This document shows positions 30,807 through 37,564 of a stretch of 41,779 nucleotides of DNA, in pieces. Each line of letters opens with the position of its first letter. The first letter of the stretch is position 1. The DNA lies in IMG/VR virus record IMGVR_UViG_2721755647_000004. One strand, 5' to 3'. The notes beneath the pieces are model-generated. The model ran no database searches. It saw only the letters and a list, made by a program, of their open reading frames with translations, and was not told the origin of the DNA. Origin of the DNA: a virus (lineage: Duplodnaviria > Heunggongvirae > Uroviricota > Caudoviricetes). Made by a program: the position numbers and the translations under genes.

Positions 30807-31184
30807 ATGACCAACAAAGAAAACAAAGATAAATATATTAACAAGTTCAAGAAAGAGCTTTCAAAATATATACAACCAACTGCTGGAGTGGACATTCAAT
30901 TATTTAACTCTAAGGATGGTGGTGGTGTAATTAAAGCCACTTTGAATAGAAGTGGAAAAAGAAAATCATCTATTGCAGGTAATTTTACTAAATTAGGTGA
31001 GGCAATTACCTCGAGTGGGCAGAGGGTTTTTGGTGGTGATCTATCAAATGTAAATTTTTACGGAACAAATACGATTTTTGATGGAGATACAATATTTTTA
31101 ATTAAATCACCTGATTCAGAGGAGTGGTCATCACAAAAAGCTTCCAAAGACGTAGAGGGAATCGTATTTGGAGGGAAAAAATGA
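30807..31184 (+). CDS. hypothetical soluble protein, first gene of an AT-rich antisense two-gene module
   Basis: 125-aa Lys/Gly-rich ORF with no recognised domain; opposite strand to the flanking P and ninB genes; stop overlaps the next ATG (ATGA). Confidence 0.5.
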   Translation: MTNKENKDKYINKFKKELSKYIQPTAGVDIQLFNSKDGGGVIKATLNRSGKRKSSIAGNFTKLGEAITSSGQRVFGGDLSNVNFYGTNTIFDGDTIFLIKSPDSEEWSSQKASKDVEGIVFGGKK

Positions 31185-31609
31185 TTAACATTACTACTAA
31201 GGATGGCACTCAAGTCAGTGGTGAAGTAAGAGATCTAGTAATTCTTCTTGAAACTGATGGAAAAACGGTGTCTGATTATTTGCAGCCAATCCCTCCCAAA
31301 AAAGATACACACTGGAGCATGATTTTCATTCCGGTAGCAATTTATATACTACTTAATCTTGTATACATTATTGCTCACCCATTATTTCCTGAAAAATATC
31401 TAAAAACATCAACATCTATATTTCTATTCATTTCCTTCATATTAAGTGCAATAGTAGCATATTTTGTTTTCCATAAGCATAAATCTGCCACTCTATCCAT
31501 ATGCAGCTTAGTGTTCTTAGTGTTAATTGTAGGTGCTAACGTAGGGTTTATCAGTTACAGCGACCTAACACAAAAAGCGACGCAAAAATTAGATAGTTTG
31601 TCTAAATAA
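31181..31609 (+). CDS. hypothetical membrane protein (about three predicted TM helices), second gene of the module
   Basis: ATG at 31181 with GGAGGG Shine-Dalgarno six nt upstream. Short soluble N-terminus, then WSMIFIPVAIYILLNLVYIIA, SIFLFISFILSAIVAYFVF and LSICSLVFLVLIVGANVGFI. Confidence 0.55.
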   Translation: MINITTKDGTQVSGEVRDLVILLETDGKTVSDYLQPIPPKKDTHWSMIFIPVAIYILLNLVYIIAHPLFPEKYLKTSTSIFLFISFILSAIVAYFVFHKHKSATLSICSLVFLVLIVGANVGFISYSDLTQKATQKLDSLSK

Positions 31610-31687: not shown

Positions 31688-32401
31688 TTATTCTTTATTA
31701 TCTTCTTTACCACTTCGCACCATCCCGTTCGACTTGTTGCGGTTGTACTTCGCCTGAAGCAGCTGGATTGGCGTCGGGCCATGCTCGGCAGCCGGTGCTG
31801 CAATCGCCCGGCGCACAGGCGGTACTGGTTTGCCCTCGGTGACGCGCCTCTCCCACATGTCCAGCAGATCGCCGGCTTCACGCGCCAGCTCACCATGCGT
31901 TAACTGGCGCTCTGTGCTGCGGTGGCGCAGTTCGACGCAGATGTGGTACATGACAGGCTGTGACCACGGGAAATGCTCGCTGGAAGTGAATTCGAAGGAA
32001 CGATTACGCCAATCCCAGTATTCGGTTATGACTTGGTCAACAGTGATACCTAACGCCCCGCCACTCTGCTTACACCACGCTACGAACTGGCCGGGCGACG
32101 GCAGGAATGGTCGCTCCTGTCGGCGGGCCACGCGCATTCCGGCGTTAACCTGCTCCATAGTGGTAATTCCATTTTCACGGAAAGCCATAACCCACTGACG
32201 GCGGATTTCGTTCAGCTCGTTCTGGTCGCGGTTCGCGAGGCTTGCCGGAAATGTCGCAAGCAGCTGGCTGAACACACCGTTGATGATCTGCGCCACCTGC
32301 TGCACCTGCGGCTTTTCGTCGTATTGTTCCGGCATGTTGTTGGCGATTCGACGCATCTGCTCACGGTCAAAGTTAATCATCTGCGCGGCAATATTTTTCA
32401 T
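31688..32401 (-). CDS. P: replication protein P (helicase loader)
   Basis: N-terminal ~110 aa MKNIAAQMINFDREQMRRIANNMPEQYDEKPQVQQVAQIINGVFSQLLATFPASLANRDQNE... match lambda P; the C-terminal half is divergent. Confidence 0.85.
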   Translation of the reverse strand: MKNIAAQMINFDREQMRRIANNMPEQYDEKPQVQQVAQIINGVFSQLLATFPASLANRDQNELNEIRRQWVMAFRENGITTMEQVNAGMRVARRQERPFLPSPGQFVAWCKQSGGALGITVDQVITEYWDWRNRSFEFTSSEHFPWSQPVMYHICVELRHRSTERQLTHGELAREAGDLLDMWERRVTEGKPVPPVRRAIAAPAAEHGPTPIQLLQAKYNRNKSNGMVRSGKEDNKE

Positions 32402-33417
32402 AGCTCCACCCCGTAAATCCAGTCAGTGTTTGTCAGGTCGAGTTTTGGTTTGCTGGCAGTCACACCAGCCTGTTGCTTGTTGCGGTTAATTTCGAGCTGA
32501 GTCCACTTGTCGCGGAGTTTTGCTGGACTCAGCACGTTACCGGACCAGAAGTTGTCCTGGCAGGCCCAGCGGAACAGAACGCACATGTCGCGATGGTTAC
32601 GCCCGTCACGCTCACGCATCAGGCGGATGTCGTTGGCCCACCCTGCAAAATTCGGTTTTCTGGCTGATGGCGCGATGGTCTTCACCATGTCAAACATCCA
32701 CTCTGCGGCGGTCAGGTCTTCTGCTGTCCCCCACTTGCTGCCGCTCTGAATTGCAGCATCCGGTTTCACCACAGGAAGATCGTTTTCTGGCTGGTCAGAG
32801 GATTCGCCAGAATTCTCGGACGAAAAAGGTTTTATATTGTCTTTTGTTAGTTTGTCTTTTGTGTTTACCTGATTCGGGTAAACGTCTTTACCTGATTTGG
32901 GTAAACTTTTCTTACCTGATTCAGGTAAATTTACCTCTTTCAGGTAAACTTTATTTTTCTTACCTGATTCGGGTAATGTTGACCATTCACTGACCACATT
33001 ATTAATGCCGATATTCCGCCCGCTCTGAATAAAAATCCCACGCTTTACCAGAACACTTTTTGCAGCAGAACACTTGTGCGGCAATATCCCGGTCAACTCG
33101 GAAAGTTGCTCGTTGCTCACCCAATCCAGTTTTTTATTAAAGCCATATGTTTTGCGCATGACAGCCAGGAAGACCAGAAGCTGGTGCTGTGTTAATCCGG
33201 CCAGCATCACAGCTTCCAGCAACTCATTTGCAATGCGCGTATAACCATCATCGAGATCTGCCACGCGCGGCTCCTTTTGTGCCACATCCGGCACTGGAAA
33301 ATTGAATATCTCAGCAGTGTTTGCCATAATTCCTCCCGCAATGAGTGTGTTACGATTTGCACCTGAAAGTCGGTTCTGTTCGCGCAGACCGGCTTTCGCC
33401 ATTTCTGAACCTGTCAT
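32398..33417 (-). CDS. O: replication initiator protein O
   Basis: 339 aa immediately upstream of P with the start overlapping the preceding gene; the replication origin iterons lie inside it (peptide repeats LPESGKK). Confidence 0.8.
   Translation of the reverse strand: MTGSEMAKAGLREQNRLSGANRNTLIAGGIMANTAEIFNFPVPDVAQKEPRVADLDDGYTRIANELLEAVMLAGLTQHQLLVFLAVMRKTYGFNKKLDWVSNEQLSELTGILPHKCSAAKSVLVKRGIFIQSGRNIGINNVVSEWSTLPESGKKNKVYLKEVNLPESGKKSLPKSGKDVYPNQVNTKDKLTKDNIKPFSSENSGESSDQPENDLPVVKPDAAIQSGSKWGTAEDLTAAEWMFDMVKTIAPSARKPNFAGWANDIRLMRERDGRNHRDMCVLFRWACQDNFWSGNVLSPAKLRDKWTQLEINRNKQQAGVTASKPKLDLTNTDWIYGVEL
32866..32976. repeat. ori iterons: five 18-bp repeats TTACCTGATTCGGGTAAA (variants) inside O
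   Basis: Copies at 32866, 32888, 32912, 32931 and 32960; each has inverted TTACC / GGTAA ends; flanked by an AT-rich stretch. Confidence 0.85.
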
Positions 33418-33959
33418 ATTGCCCCCAGCATGGTGGTGACCATCGCCATCAATGGACCAGCCAGATCCGGGTCCACACGAAACATCGACACAATGCCTTC
33501 ACTCATCTCCTTCAGTTTCTGGTGGCGTGGTGCGTTGAGAATGACAGCCTGTTTTGCCTCACTGAGTTCCTTTTCCATTTCAGCCAGCCGAGCCATGTAG
33601 CTATCCTGCTCAACCAGGTGGCCGCGATATTCCAGCGGTAGTACCGCCAGAATTGCCGGGGTCAGTTCACGCACGTTATTTCGGTATTTTTCAGAATCGA
33701 ATTTGTTATCGAGAAAGCGGAACAGCTTCTGGCGTGCACGGCTGACATCATCAGGGAAATCGATGGTGCCGCCGCCCTGCTCCCGATACTCATTCACAAT
33801 GAGTGCGGCAACAACATCCTGATTATCTGCAGCCGACCAGGCGCGAACGGCATCACGGATTTTTTCGTGGCCTGGCGCCTGTTTTGTTTGAGAACGATTT
33901 ATCACCGCAGTCGGGCTAAATCCGCTAGTCTGTTGGTATGTAAGTGGTTGCATAGTCAT
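33414..33959 (-). CDS. hypothetical protein in the cII position (possibly YdaT/CII-like)
   Basis: 181-aa ORF between cro and O with ATGA overlap onto O; not lambda CII (97 aa). The family assignment is from uncertain memory. Confidence 0.45.
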   Translation of the reverse strand: MTMQPLTYQQTSGFSPTAVINRSQTKQAPGHEKIRDAVRAWSAADNQDVVAALIVNEYREQGGGTIDFPDDVSRARQKLFRFLDNKFDSEKYRNNVRELTPAILAVLPLEYRGHLVEQDSYMARLAEMEKELSEAKQAVILNAPRHQKLKEMSEGIVSMFRVDPDLAGPLMAMVTTMLGAI

Positions 33960-33983
33960 TGCCTTATCAGTTAACGCCGCAGT

Positions 33984-34210
33984 TTAGGCGGCAGAATTAC
34001 TCGCGTTAAACAATGGTGCGAGGTCGGGACGAATATCTGCTGGTTTAATCTTTCCACCAGTGGCTGAGACAATTTTCATTACATAGCGGGCATCAATTCC
34101 GCCACCGTGTAGCCAACGCCAAACTGTGGGTTGGGCTACACCGCATAGATCTGCCAGTCGTTTTTGACTACCTGTAATACTGATTGCGAGTTGAATGGTT
34201 TGATTTGTCA
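33984..34210 (-). CDS. cro: Cro-like repressor (HTH)
   Basis: MTNQTIQLAISITGSQKRLADLCGVAQPTVWRWL...; divergent from cI across an operator region. Confidence 0.8.
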
Positions 34211-34321
34211 TTATCAATTCCTATTGGTATTGCAATGAATAAATAATAGCAATGCGTATTAATCCAAGCAATAGCAAAACGTGTTTTGACCATCAATACG
34301 CAAGCGTATAAATTAAAACTT
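34211..34321. promoter_or_regulatory. immunity-region right operator and pR/pRM region between cro and cI
   Basis: AT-rich divergent intergenic region with the AATAGCAA motif at 34245 and 34270 (25 bp apart); the same motif recurs at the putative left operator. Confidence 0.55.
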
Positions 34322-35014
34322 ATGAAAAAAGAAACTCTTGCTGATCGCTTAAACCTAGCGATGGAACAATCTGGAATGTCTCAAGGCGCTCTTGCAAAGG
34401 CGTCTGGCGTAGCTCAACCCACAATCTGGAGACTGACAAGCGGCAACGCGCGCGGCTCAACAAAAATTGTTGAAATAGCTAATGCATTGGGTGTTCGAAC
34501 AGAATGGCTCTCATCAGGCATAGGCCCGATGAGAAATGACGGTCAACAATCAGGGAAGCCTGCTGTCAGCTATTCCAAATACTTTAAAATTGACGTTCTT
34601 GATATAGAAGTGAGTGCCGGGCCGGGAGTCATCAACCGTGAGTTTGTAGAAGTTCTACGCTCGGTTGAGTACTCGTTTGACGATGCTCGTCACATGTTCG
34701 ATGGTAGGAAGGCAGAAAATATCCGCATCATTAACGTACGCGGTGACAGCATGTCAGGAACGATTGAACCTGGTGATCTTCTATTCGTTGATATCACGGT
34801 TAAATCTTTCGACGGTGATGGTATCTATGCGTTTCTGTACGACGACACAGCCCATGTAAAGCGCCTGCAAATGATGAAGGATAAGCTGCTGGTTATCTCT
34901 GATAACAAAAGCTACTCACCGTGGGACCCGATCGAGAAAGATGAGATGAACCGGGTATTTATCTTCGGGAAAGTTATTGGGAGCATGCCGCAGACGTATA
35001 GGAAGCATGGATAG
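34322..35014 (+). CDS. cI: CI-like prophage repressor (HTH_XRE plus S24 LexA-like peptidase domain)
   Basis: MKKETLADRLNLAMEQSGMSQGALAKASGVAQPTIWRL HTH; C-terminal RGDSMSGTIEPGDLLFVD ... KRL catalytic Ser/Lys motifs. An alternative TTG start lies at 34286. Confidence 0.9.
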   Translation: MKKETLADRLNLAMEQSGMSQGALAKASGVAQPTIWRLTSGNARGSTKIVEIANALGVRTEWLSSGIGPMRNDGQQSGKPAVSYSKYFKIDVLDIEVSAGPGVINREFVEVLRSVEYSFDDARHMFDGRKAENIRIINVRGDSMSGTIEPGDLLFVDITVKSFDGDGIYAFLYDDTAHVKRLQMMKDKLLVISDNKSYSPWDPIEKDEMNRVFIFGKVIGSMPQTYRKHG

Positions 35015-35094
35015 TACCAATTAAAAATTATCAACCGGGCATTGTGCTCATTCAGTAAAACAACTTAATTATTCATTTTAGAATGGAGAACTTA

Positions 35095-36156
35095 ATGGAT
35101 ACTTTAAAATATGAGAAATTCTCTGATTTTGATCACAATGACCCATTTTTTGACTCTTTAAAAAAAGATTATAAAGAGTTTCCTCTTTGGTTAGAAAAAA
35201 AAGCCAGAGAAGGAGAATCAGCTTATGTGCTCTATGATGACAAGCATAAAATCGAAGGTTTTATGTATCTAAAAGAAAATGATGATGCAAATGACATTAA
35301 TCCAGCGCTCCCACCAGGACGTCATCTAAAGATAGGAACATTCAAATTTGAATCTAAAGGCACCCTTCGCGGACAACGATTTCTAAAAAAAGCGTTTGAC
35401 CATGCATTTTCATCAAAATCTGATGATATTTATGTTACTGTTTTCGACAAACACGTCCATCTAATAAAACTTTTCCAAACGTACGGATTTTACATTCATG
35501 GTGAAAAAGAAACACATAACGGGAAAGAGTTTGTATATGCGAGGTCTTTGCATGAGCCTTATGGTGATATTTTATTAGATTACCCTCGAATAATGACATC
35601 AAGGGCCAACAAATATTTACTGGCGATTTATCCCGAATATCACACTAGACTATTCCCTGATTCAAAACTTGTAAATGAATCACCAGATATTGTCAAAGAT
35701 ATATCCCATGCTAACAGCATTCATAAAATTTACATATGTGGAATGCGTTCTGTGATGGGAATGAAAAGAGGAGATATCATTGTCATCTATAGAACCGGAG
35801 ACAAAAAAGGGCCAGCTCGCTATCGTTCTGTAGCCAGTACATTATGTGTAGTTGAGAGCGTAAAAAATATTTCTGAATTTTTAAGCGAAGATAGTTTTGT
35901 AGACTATTGTATTCGTTTTAGCGTATTTTCTGAAGATGAACTCAGAAAAATCTATAAAGAACGTCGATACCCTTTCATTATAAGATTCACATACAATCTG
36001 TCTTTGCCAAAGAGACCCAATCGTGCTATTTTAATAGATCATGTGGGGCTAAATGGTTCGCGTGCATTCCGATGGAGTCACTTTAAACTCACAAATGAGC
36101 AGTTCTTAAAGATCATCGAGTTAGGCAAGATAAATGAAAGTTTTATTATCCATTAA
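35095..36156 (+). CDS. hypothetical protein, first gene of the rex-position cassette; N-terminal GNAT-like fold and C-terminal PUA/ASCH-like region suspected
   Basis: ATG at 35095 with GGAG six nt upstream; about 353 aa; AT-rich; 80 nt downstream of the cI stop on the same strand. Domain calls come from motif inspection only. Confidence 0.55.
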   Translation: MDTLKYEKFSDFDHNDPFFDSLKKDYKEFPLWLEKKAREGESAYVLYDDKHKIEGFMYLKENDDANDINPALPPGRHLKIGTFKFESKGTLRGQRFLKKAFDHAFSSKSDDIYVTVFDKHVHLIKLFQTYGFYIHGEKETHNGKEFVYARSLHEPYGDILLDYPRIMTSRANKYLLAIYPEYHTRLFPDSKLVNESPDIVKDISHANSIHKIYICGMRSVMGMKRGDIIVIYRTGDKKGPARYRSVASTLCVVESVKNISEFLSEDSFVDYCIRFSVFSEDELRKIYKERRYPFIIRFTYNLSLPKRPNRAILIDHVGLNGSRAFRWSHFKLTNEQFLKIIELGKINESFIIH

Positions 36157-36511
36157 GCCTGAGTTTGCAGAAAAAATATTGAACGGAACAAAGCGGTTCG
36201 AGTTTCGTAAAGGTATATTCAAAAATCCGCAAATTAGCACCGTTGTTATTTATGCCACGATGCCATTAGGTAAAGTTGTTGGTCAATTCCGTATTGAATC
36301 AATACTAAGTGACGAACCGGAATCTCTTTGGAAAAAGACGGAAAAGCACGCAGGTATTTCTAAGCAATTTTATGACTCATATTATTCAGGTAGAGAAAAG
36401 GCCTACGCAATAAAAATTGGTGAAGTGGAAAGATATAAAGAACCAATTCCTATCTCTGCTCTAGGTAGTAATATTAAGCCACCACAATCATATCTTTACC
36501 TACCTGCGTAA
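36134..36511 (+). CDS. ASCH-domain protein, second gene of the rex-position cassette
   Basis: 125 aa; N-terminal NGTKRFEFRKG fits the ASCH GxKxxExR motif; overlaps the preceding gene by 23 nt. Confidence 0.6.
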   Translation: MKVLLSIKPEFAEKILNGTKRFEFRKGIFKNPQISTVVIYATMPLGKVVGQFRIESILSDEPESLWKKTEKHAGISKQFYDSYYSGREKAYAIKIGEVERYKEPIPISALGSNIKPPQSYLYLPA

Positions 36512-36515
36512 GAAT

Positions 36516-36542
36516 CCCGGCCACCGTGCCGGGTTTTCTTTT
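36516..36542 (+). terminator. rho-independent terminator ending the cI-cassette transcription unit
   Basis: Stem cccggc/gccggg (36516..36521 and 36528..36533), loop caccgt, followed by ttttctttt. Confidence 0.7.
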
Positions 36543-36639
36543 GTCCCCTCATCACACAAACCGTTCGAAAAACCACCACATCCTCCCTTCAGTTATCGCT
36601 ATGCGATGCAAGTCACAAAATTAATTCTTTTTGCTATCA

Positions 36640-36780
36640 AACATTTAATATCAAAACACATCAACCAATAGCAATAAGTATTGATATCACCAATAGCAAT
36701 AGCTATTATCACCATATCGCAACAACACAACGATACGGCAACCACCTGATTCACCGTTGCGATGACCGCTTAGATCCGCA
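36640..36780. promoter_or_regulatory. putative left operator and pL region
   Basis: CAATAGCAAT repeated at 36666 and 36691 (25 bp apart) with TATCACC-containing elements; lies between the terminator and the leftward early genes. Confidence 0.5.
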
Positions 36781-36782
36781 GT

Positions 36783-37193
36783 TTGAATTTCAGCAGGCTT
36801 CGGGGAGTGCGAGGGGTGAAACGGACGCGTGAACGTCGGTGTGACCAGCTGAAATTAACTCAACATTTCATACCTCAGTCGCTTCAACGAGGCGGTTTAG
36901 TTATGACAACCGGCGGCCATCCACCGCCTGAATACGCGCAGAAGTCTCTATATGTTCAGCAGCCCAGCTTACGGGCAGGAGTTTTTATGGTTCATCAACA
37001 TTACGGAACACAGACCGTTAATCGCGGTGCGGTCATGCCAGGAATGCTGGTCAAACACAAAGATGGTACCTGGACTGCATCAGCTAATTTACGCGGACGG
37101 CTTTATCTGCATCGCGGCATCGAGCGCACTTATACCCGTGACTTGCTCGTGGAAGTTTTTCTCGACGGACGCGGCAACGGCCTGAATCACTAA
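36783..37193 (+). CDS. hypothetical early-left protein with Arg-rich N-terminus (possible N-like antiterminator or other pL gene)
   Basis: 136-aa ORF; N-terminus [15 protein letters not shown]; alternative ATG at 36903 with GAGG upstream. No family recognised. Confidence 0.35.
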
Positions 37194-37267
37194 CCCCCTT
37201 TCCTGTTTTCCTAATCAGCCTGGCATTTCGCGGGCGATATTTTCACAGCTATTTCAGGAGTTCAGCC

Positions 37268-37564
37268 ATGAACGCTTATTACATTCAGGATCGTCTTGAG
37301 GCTCAGAGCTGGGTGCGTCACTACCAGCAGATCGCCCGTGAAGAGAAAGAGGCAGAACTGGCAGACGACATGGAAAAAGGCCTGCCCCAGCACCTGTTTG
37401 AATCGCTATGCATCGATCATTTGCAACGCCACGGGGCCAGCAAAAAAGCCATTACCCGTGCGTTTGATGACGATGTTGAGTTTCAGGAGCGCATGGCAGA
37501 ACACATCCGGTACATGGTTGAAACCATTGCTCACCATCAGGTTGATATTGATTCAGAGGTATAA
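37268..37564 (+). CDS. gam: Gam host-nuclease inhibitor, short form
   Basis: [60 protein letters not shown]... matches lambda Gam residues 41 to 138. Confidence 0.95.

Follow-up and report, generated by a model that had tools for sequence, protein, structure and literature searches.

Which function is encoded by a pair of overlapping genes that, in a lambdoid phage, occupies the interval between the repressor gene and the left operator region? The question is raised by IMG/VR virus record IMGVR_UViG_2721755647_000004 (Duplodnaviria; Heunggongvirae; Uroviricota; Caudoviricetes), a 41,779-nucleotide stretch of DNA that was analyzed at its full length and is called the window below. The two genes, open reading frames ORF1 and ORF2, encode a GNAT-type acetyltransferase fused to a PUA-like domain and a small ASCH-domain protein. 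An earlier note, made from the sequence of the window without database searches, took them for a candidate undescribed module of defence or exclusion. The cassette is, with practical certainty, a copy of the system catalogued as PDC-M11 and described as GNAT-EVE + ASCH, and it is probably a lysogen-expressed exclusion module of the toxin-antitoxin type, a moron that a lambdoid phage carries in its rexAB slot. Defence or exclusion thus stands as the leading hypothesis, whereas the claim that the pairing is undescribed has to be withdrawn.

Both proteins are recognized by the PADLOC-DB v2 models of a single system. ORF1 (35095..36156, + strand, 353 aa) matches PDC-M11A (PDLC04419) at 2.1e-133, with residues 6-356 aligned to positions 10-356 of the 357-position profile, and ORF2 (36134..36511, + strand, 125 aa) matches PDC-M11B (PDLC04425) at 6.8e-52, with residues 1-123 aligned to positions 1-122 of 132; the two genes are adjacent on the + strand. 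The same pair has the composition of GNAT-EVE + ASCH: an N-terminal GNAT-like fold is followed by a C-terminal EVE/PUA-like barrel, and the operon contains an ASCH gene (Pfam PF04266, 2.5e-8). Gene order, overlap, two-domain architecture and a prophage setting in gamma-proteobacteria are all shared with the described system, and no substantive difference was found. The window carries the short form, which lacks the N-terminal PIN-type extension.

The PDC systems, 145 in all, were proposed as "phage defence candidates" because their members occur inside BREX, DISARM or type I restriction-modification (RM) loci (Payne et al., preprint). Bell et al. (2020; PMC7641849) described (PIN)-GNAT-EVE operons, almost all of which include an ASCH gene, predicted a toxin-antitoxin system, regarded the modules as uncharacterized at that time and noted that the PIN-less form is common in prophages of β- and γ-proteobacteria; that paper credits Iyer et al. 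(2013) with the first description of (PIN)-GNAT-EVE + ASCH. The ORF1 protein is 100% identical in eight phage records, and seven deposited coliphages match a DNA query comprising cI and the cassette at ≥98.8%. In one 100%-identical copy, that of PhiR47_2 (PV340567.1), the genes are annotated "GevT toxin" and "GevA antitoxin"; a later paper attributes the PhiR phages to Brenes and Laub (2025). The module is therefore already known, being catalogued, named in GenBank and very common, and on these grounds its novelty had been over-rated.

The two coding regions lie where the earlier note had put them, downstream of cI and with a 23-nt overlap. An alternative in-frame ATG of ORF1 at 35083 was the start given in the list of open reading frames, but the real start is almost certainly 35095, because a GGAG at 35086-35089 precedes it by 5 nt and the homologues, almost without exception, have 350-357 aa and begin at the same Met. 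Since ORF1 matched nothing in Pfam, it was modelled with AlphaFold2 using 34 homologues. The model is confident (mean predicted local distance difference test score, 86; predicted template modelling score, 0.83) and resolves a GNAT domain at residues ~1-150 and a PUA-like barrel at ~165-353, bearing out the arrangement that had been guessed from the sequence. ORF1 is thus a GNAT-fold acetyltransferase with a C-terminal PUA-like (EVE/ASCH-type) nucleic-acid reader domain.

The 5' end of ORF2 overlaps the 3' end of ORF1 by those 23 nt, which suggests translational coupling. The ASCH-type GxKxxExR motif that had been read in its product is genuine: it is formed by G18-T-K20-R-F-E23-F-R25, and K20, E23 and R25 are invariant across 80 aligned ASCH sequences, namely that of the window and 79 from the loci described below. 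The fold of ORF2 resembles the reader domain of its partner, making the two look-alikes. When the C-terminal domain of ORF1 was compared with ORF2 by hhalign, only the first 20 columns aligned, at a probability of 20%; they cover the opening strand-helix, KYLLAIYPEYHTRLF in one protein and KVLLSIKPEFAEKIL in the other. With so few columns aligned, paralogy of the two rests mainly on fold.

The position of the cassette gives the first indication of when it would be expressed. Upstream lies a cI-type repressor gene (34322..35014, + strand, ATG at 34322) whose product has HTH_3 and Peptidase_S24 domains (Pfam, 1.2e-6 and 1.5e-18); the same 230-aa form is called in sibling prophages, and the gene is presumed to be the first of a lysogenic, pRM-type transcript. 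An 80-nt spacer (35015..35094, + strand, 28.7% GC), which contains the GGAG Shine-Dalgarno sequence, separates it from ORF1, and a consensus scan of the spacer detected no terminator-like hairpin. Immediately after ORF2, the scan found an intrinsic terminator (36516..36543, + strand) with a stem at 36516-36533 of six G-C pairs (CCCGGC-loop-GCCGGG) followed by the T-run TTTTCTTTTG; it is predicted to close the cI-cassette transcript.

Beyond the terminator, two exact copies of ACCAATAGCAATA, at 36664 and 36689, mark the left operator region (36664..36701, assigned to no strand), and variants of the same sequence with two mismatches occur in the cro-cI intergenic region (34216-34279). The window contains six matches to this operator-like repeat against 0.68 expected by chance, which argues that the repeats are operators; the cassette, lying between cI and OL/pL, is therefore in the rexA-rexB position. 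The architecture set out in the earlier note thus holds in each respect: an unterminated 80-nt gap to cI, a clean terminator before the left operator, and a rexA-rexB position that is borne out by cI upstream, by the OL/pL repeats downstream and by the gene order of sibling prophages. The AT-richness that had been judged by eye was also borne out by calculation: the cassette has a GC content of 35.3% versus 50.9% for the window, only 0.25% of stretches of equal length (~1.4 kb) are as low, and the minimum of the whole window falls at the cassette.

In Escherichia coli, the cassette is common. It is present in 275 of 5426 complete genomes (5%), always chromosomal, in single copy and ≥99% identical, and the exact protein is indexed in ~12,500 sample blocks of an assembly collection. 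All eight E. coli prophage loci compared (8/8) have the order P, O, YdaT, YdaS and then S24 repressor, GNAT-reader, ASCH, kil, gam, bet, exo, a slot that is the rexAB slot. In a P2-like prophage of Dickeya, the pair lies, together with one gene of unassigned family, between repressor C and the integrase gene, an interval that, from what is known of P2, we take to be the lysogenic operon. In Salmonella phage SopEΦ the pair lies between gpA and gpQ, a P2 hotspot that also houses old and tin (PMC9122126).

The family also extends to more distant hosts. In the Lactobacillus prophage Lj965, the pair corresponds to Ljo_0304/0305 (L095:2807-4902) and directly follows four tRNA genes (Ser, Glu, Tyr and Phe). 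In the archaeal prophage ψM100 (psiM100; L097:2536-4381), the 492-aa ORFD is a full-length match to the long form of PDC-M11A (1.7e-119), and ORF5 matches PDC-M11B (4e-44) and overlaps ORFD by 23 nt, exactly as in the window. ORFD falls mostly within the annotated "inserted fragment IFa"; the psiM100 pair therefore shows the module crossing the boundary between bacteria and archaea as a phage insertion.

Linkage of the two genes is near-complete across species. A pattern scan that took one genome per species yielded 215 confirmed relatives, of which the best 80 loci, from 80 species, were kept; they span Proteobacteria, Bacteroidota, Bacillota, Acidobacteriota, Verrucomicrobiota and others. 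An ASCH homologue accompanies the GNAT gene in 80/80 loci, so the co-occurrence that had been proposed as a check is conserved. In 77 of the 80 the GNAT gene is followed at once by the ASCH gene, the 3' end of the former overlapping the latter on the same strand, and in the remaining three the ASCH gene is on the opposite strand at a distance of ≤2.3 kb. Adjacency to a repressor gene is seen in the E. coli lambdoid and Dickeya P2-like prophages but is rare elsewhere: among the upstream neighbours in other species, an S24 repressor was found in only 4 of 61.

The surroundings of the pair are indeed mixed, including S24 repressors, integrases, AAA_17 ATPases, KwaB, HsdR_N, SIR2_2, relaxases and metabolic genes, which argues that the pair is an autonomous mobile unit; it travels as such among prophages, integrative elements and defence islands. 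An AAA_17 ATPase gene adjoins about one in nine loci and is absent beside the pair of the window. The family itself is large (1631 matches in a database clustered at 90%, and 1421 clusters at 50% identity), and its long forms, of ~500 and ~620 aa, carry an N-terminal extension and match the PIN-GNAT-EVE architecture of Bell et al. (2020).

A separate observation concerns a gene of ~358 codons that recurs near the pair in 12 loci from 11 species (L090:3893-4969, L008:4903-5973, L010:4835-5971, L012:4888-5961 and L021:4861-5988, among others). Its product has a hydrophobic C-terminal tail and matches nothing in Pfam or PADLOC. In six loci the gene immediately precedes the pair on its strand, and in the other six it is found downstream, up to ~2 kb away. 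The gene, which is not present in the window, may be an accessory third component.

Genetic hints that the two proteins act as toxin and antitoxin come from two bacteria. A transposon insertion sequencing (Tn-seq) study of Pectobacteriaceae placed, in Dickeya dadantii 3937, four genes of prophage 1 on the essential list, the CI repressor gene Dda3937_01765, the ASCH-protein gene Dda3937_01763 and two others, and the list does not include locus tag 01764 (PMC13566846). Two proteins of this family have consecutive accession numbers in strain 3937, ADM97071.1 for an ASCH protein and ADM97072.1 for a GNAT protein, from which Dda3937_01763 is inferred to be the ASCH partner of a GNAT-ASCH pair. If 01763 and 01764 are that pair, the ASCH gene is indispensable and the GNAT gene dispensable, the pattern typical of an antitoxin-toxin pair. 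In E. coli MSI001 (NZ_CP076645.1, 3658194-3660856), the acetyltransferase gene is broken by ISKpn26, an element of the IS5 family, and the ASCH gene downstream of it is still annotated, which is compatible with the antitoxin reading as an anecdote only. Taken as a claim by itself, toxin-antitoxin behaviour is likely.

Such behaviour would also serve addiction, by which the pair would do no more than stabilize its prophage or mobile element through post-segregational killing, with no protection against other phages. The antitoxin-like genetics from Dickeya Tn-seq and the presence of the pair on many kinds of mobile elements fit this explanation. It is nonetheless unlikely: the pair sits in known exclusion slots, the rexAB position and the P2 gpA-gpQ hotspot, and the family was noticed through its embedding in RM, BREX and DISARM loci.

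The division of labour between the two proteins could also be of another kind. Some ASCH proteins are amidohydrolases; those of the YqfB type act on N4-acetylcytidine and have T in place of E in the GxKxxExR motif. The earlier note had entertained an ASCH hydrolase paired with the acetyltransferase, and in its fullest version the idea would be a reversal like that of DarT/DarG, with GevT acetylating an RNA or DNA base and the ASCH protein stripping the acetyl group as YqfB does. Acetylation of bases had been proposed by Iyer et al. (2013), according to Bell et al. (2020; PMC7641849). ORF2, however, keeps the canonical, invariant E23 and not the T of YqfB; a BLASTP comparison with YqfB gave nothing significant (best E, 0.16); and the closest solved relative of ORF2, ZmASCH, is reported as an RNA-binding RNase and not as a deacetylase. 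With the wrong motif residue and no significant similarity, ORF2 was rejected as a YqfB-like deacetylase, and the reversal as a whole is improbable.

ZmASCH, an ASCH protein of Zymomonas mobilis whose crystal structures are 5GUS and 5GUQ, is a clear homologue of ORF2 (E, 8e-16); in vitro, it binds nucleic acids and, with Mg2+, cleaves single-stranded RNA (PMC5615036). In our alignment its Tyr47 corresponds to Y40, which is invariant, its Ser128 to S119, which is conserved in at least 90% of the sequences, and its Lys53 to G46. The homology, the conserved Tyr and Ser and the RNase activity of ZmASCH would suit a pair with its roles exchanged, in which the ASCH protein is the RNase effector and the GNAT-reader protein a sensor or regulator. 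That arrangement is very unlikely, given that a toxic effector should not be essential by Tn-seq while its partner is dispensable, that Lys53 of ZmASCH is not conserved, that the gene for ZmASCH is not beside a GNAT-EVE gene and that PV340567.1 labels the ASCH protein an antitoxin. An origin of ZmASCH in a GNAT-EVE operon was considered separately and ruled out, its upstream neighbour encoding an unrelated 375-aa protein; as a relative of ORF2, ZmASCH thus differs in having no adjacent GNAT-EVE gene and no counterpart of Lys53 in ORF2, and its RNase activity is known in vitro only.

Where the module might act is hinted at by a second match. NCBIfam model NF008917 recognizes ORF2 at 2.8e-15 over profile positions 191-310 of 311; it describes a fusion to ribosomal protein L22, and the match falls on its C-terminal "unknown domain". 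This may be a Rosetta-stone link, read from sequence, between the ORF2-type ASCH subfamily and the ribosome, and, combined with the action of ZmASCH on RNA, it is a weak pointer to RNA of the translation apparatus as the target. The adjacency of the Lj965 pair to tRNA genes, anecdotal as it is, is suggestive in the same direction if the toxin acts on tRNA. RNA or tRNA as the substrate can accordingly be put forward only tentatively.

Assembled from these parts, the proposed mechanism of the exclusion module would run as follows. In the lysogen, the cassette genes would be co-transcribed with cI. The reader domain would bring the acetyltransferase to its nucleic-acid substrate, for which tRNA, aminoacyl-tRNA or some other RNA of the translation apparatus is the likeliest candidate. 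The ASCH protein would restrain the enzyme, either by direct contact or by covering the ligand that both recognize. A superinfecting phage would lift this restraint, and the ensuing acetylation would arrest the cell and abort the infection, as Rex does in lambda. An anti-phage role, judged separately from the toxin-antitoxin behaviour, is favoured by a small degree.

Several points weigh against the proposal. GNATs usually bear the acetyl-CoA motif Q/RxxGxG/A, from which the RGQR of ORF1 departs. Co-transcription with cI has the absence of a predicted terminator as its sole ground, and because the pairs of Lj965 and psiM100 lie beside packaging genes and not beside a repressor, lysogenic expression may not be general. 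The Tn-seq link hangs on the mapping of locus tags to consecutive accessions, and the locus tags of strain 3937 are not ordered (PMC13566846). The PDC systems are candidates only, which were not assayed (Payne et al., preprint), and a literature search found no experimental description of GevT/GevA or of GNAT-EVE + ASCH.

The placement of the Lj965 and psiM100 pairs beside packaging genes, far from the repressor, also bears on the last alternative, that the pair modifies phage or host nucleic acid for the phage's own benefit, as anti-restriction or epigenetic marking, and not for exclusion of competitors: Bell et al. (2020; PMC7641849) speculate that prophage GNAT-EVE may shield phages from host RM. 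The idea nevertheless has very little to commend it: in the window and its relatives the pair belongs to the repressor operon, which precedes pL and ends at a terminator ahead of the lytic genes, and a simple pair of modification enzymes would not be expected to include an ASCH gene that seems essential.

Exclusion by a lysogen-expressed module invites comparison with lambda RexA-RexB. The slot is shared, each cassette following cI on its own strand and preceding OL/pL; there are two genes in each case; the cassette is likewise presumably expressed in the lysogen; and the proposed outcome, abortive exclusion of a superinfecting phage, is alike. Kinship in sequence or fold was not found: scans of Pfam and PADLOC, libraries that include Rex models, returned only ASCH and PDC-M11. 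RexB is a multi-pass membrane protein, whereas ORF2, small and of the ASCH fold, shows no trace of such architecture, as judged without computing transmembrane segments. The predicted chemistry differs as well, acetyl transfer in the cassette versus membrane depolarization in Rex.

The type II GNAT toxins (TacT, AtaT, KacT and ItaT) share with ORF1 the GNAT fold and, as proposed here, the combination of a growth-arresting acetyltransferase with a small adjacent neutralizer. In TacAT, AtaRT and KacAT, the toxin, which acetylates aminoacyl-tRNA, has a single domain and is preceded by the gene for a ribbon-helix-helix (RHH)/DUF1778 antitoxin. The cassette departs from this architecture, since ORF1 has two domains and 353 aa and its partner is a downstream ASCH protein; structurally, ORF1 is no nearer to the type II GNAT toxins than to other GNATs.

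The rest of the window is that of a lambdoid phage with its "leftward" genes on the + strand. Genes of the O, YdaT and YdaS families lie on the − strand at 32398-34217, and a kil-like ORF, bet and exo follow on the + strand from 36783. The cro and cII positions (33414..34217, − strand) are occupied by members of the YdaS and YdaT families (Pfam, 1e-14 and 2.4e-29). Between pL and the kil-like ORF at 36783..37193 (region inspected, 36545..37270), no gene resembling the antiterminator gene N can be discerned, and an Rfam search of the whole window found no RNA families.

A second AT-rich island (30807..31609, + strand, 33.6% GC) is oriented against the P and nin genes on either side. It contains two overlapping ORFs of 125 and 161 aa, the latter rich in hydrophobic segments; both are without a PADLOC match and without a Pfam match above threshold. 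The corresponding P-ninB interval of sibling prophages is occupied by a SIR2_2 protein, by an invasin-like protein, or by a resolvase together with EamA, and the island looks like a variable moron or defence hotspot.

The module ranges from prophages of Enterobacterales to those of Lactobacillus and to an archaeal virus, and it occupies classic exclusion slots. It is a good experimental target, because the literature found on it gives no substrate, no trigger and no mechanism of neutralization. If the proposed mechanism is true, an acetyltransferase guided by a reader domain and restrained by a protein that resembles this very domain would be a new chemistry for abortive infection.

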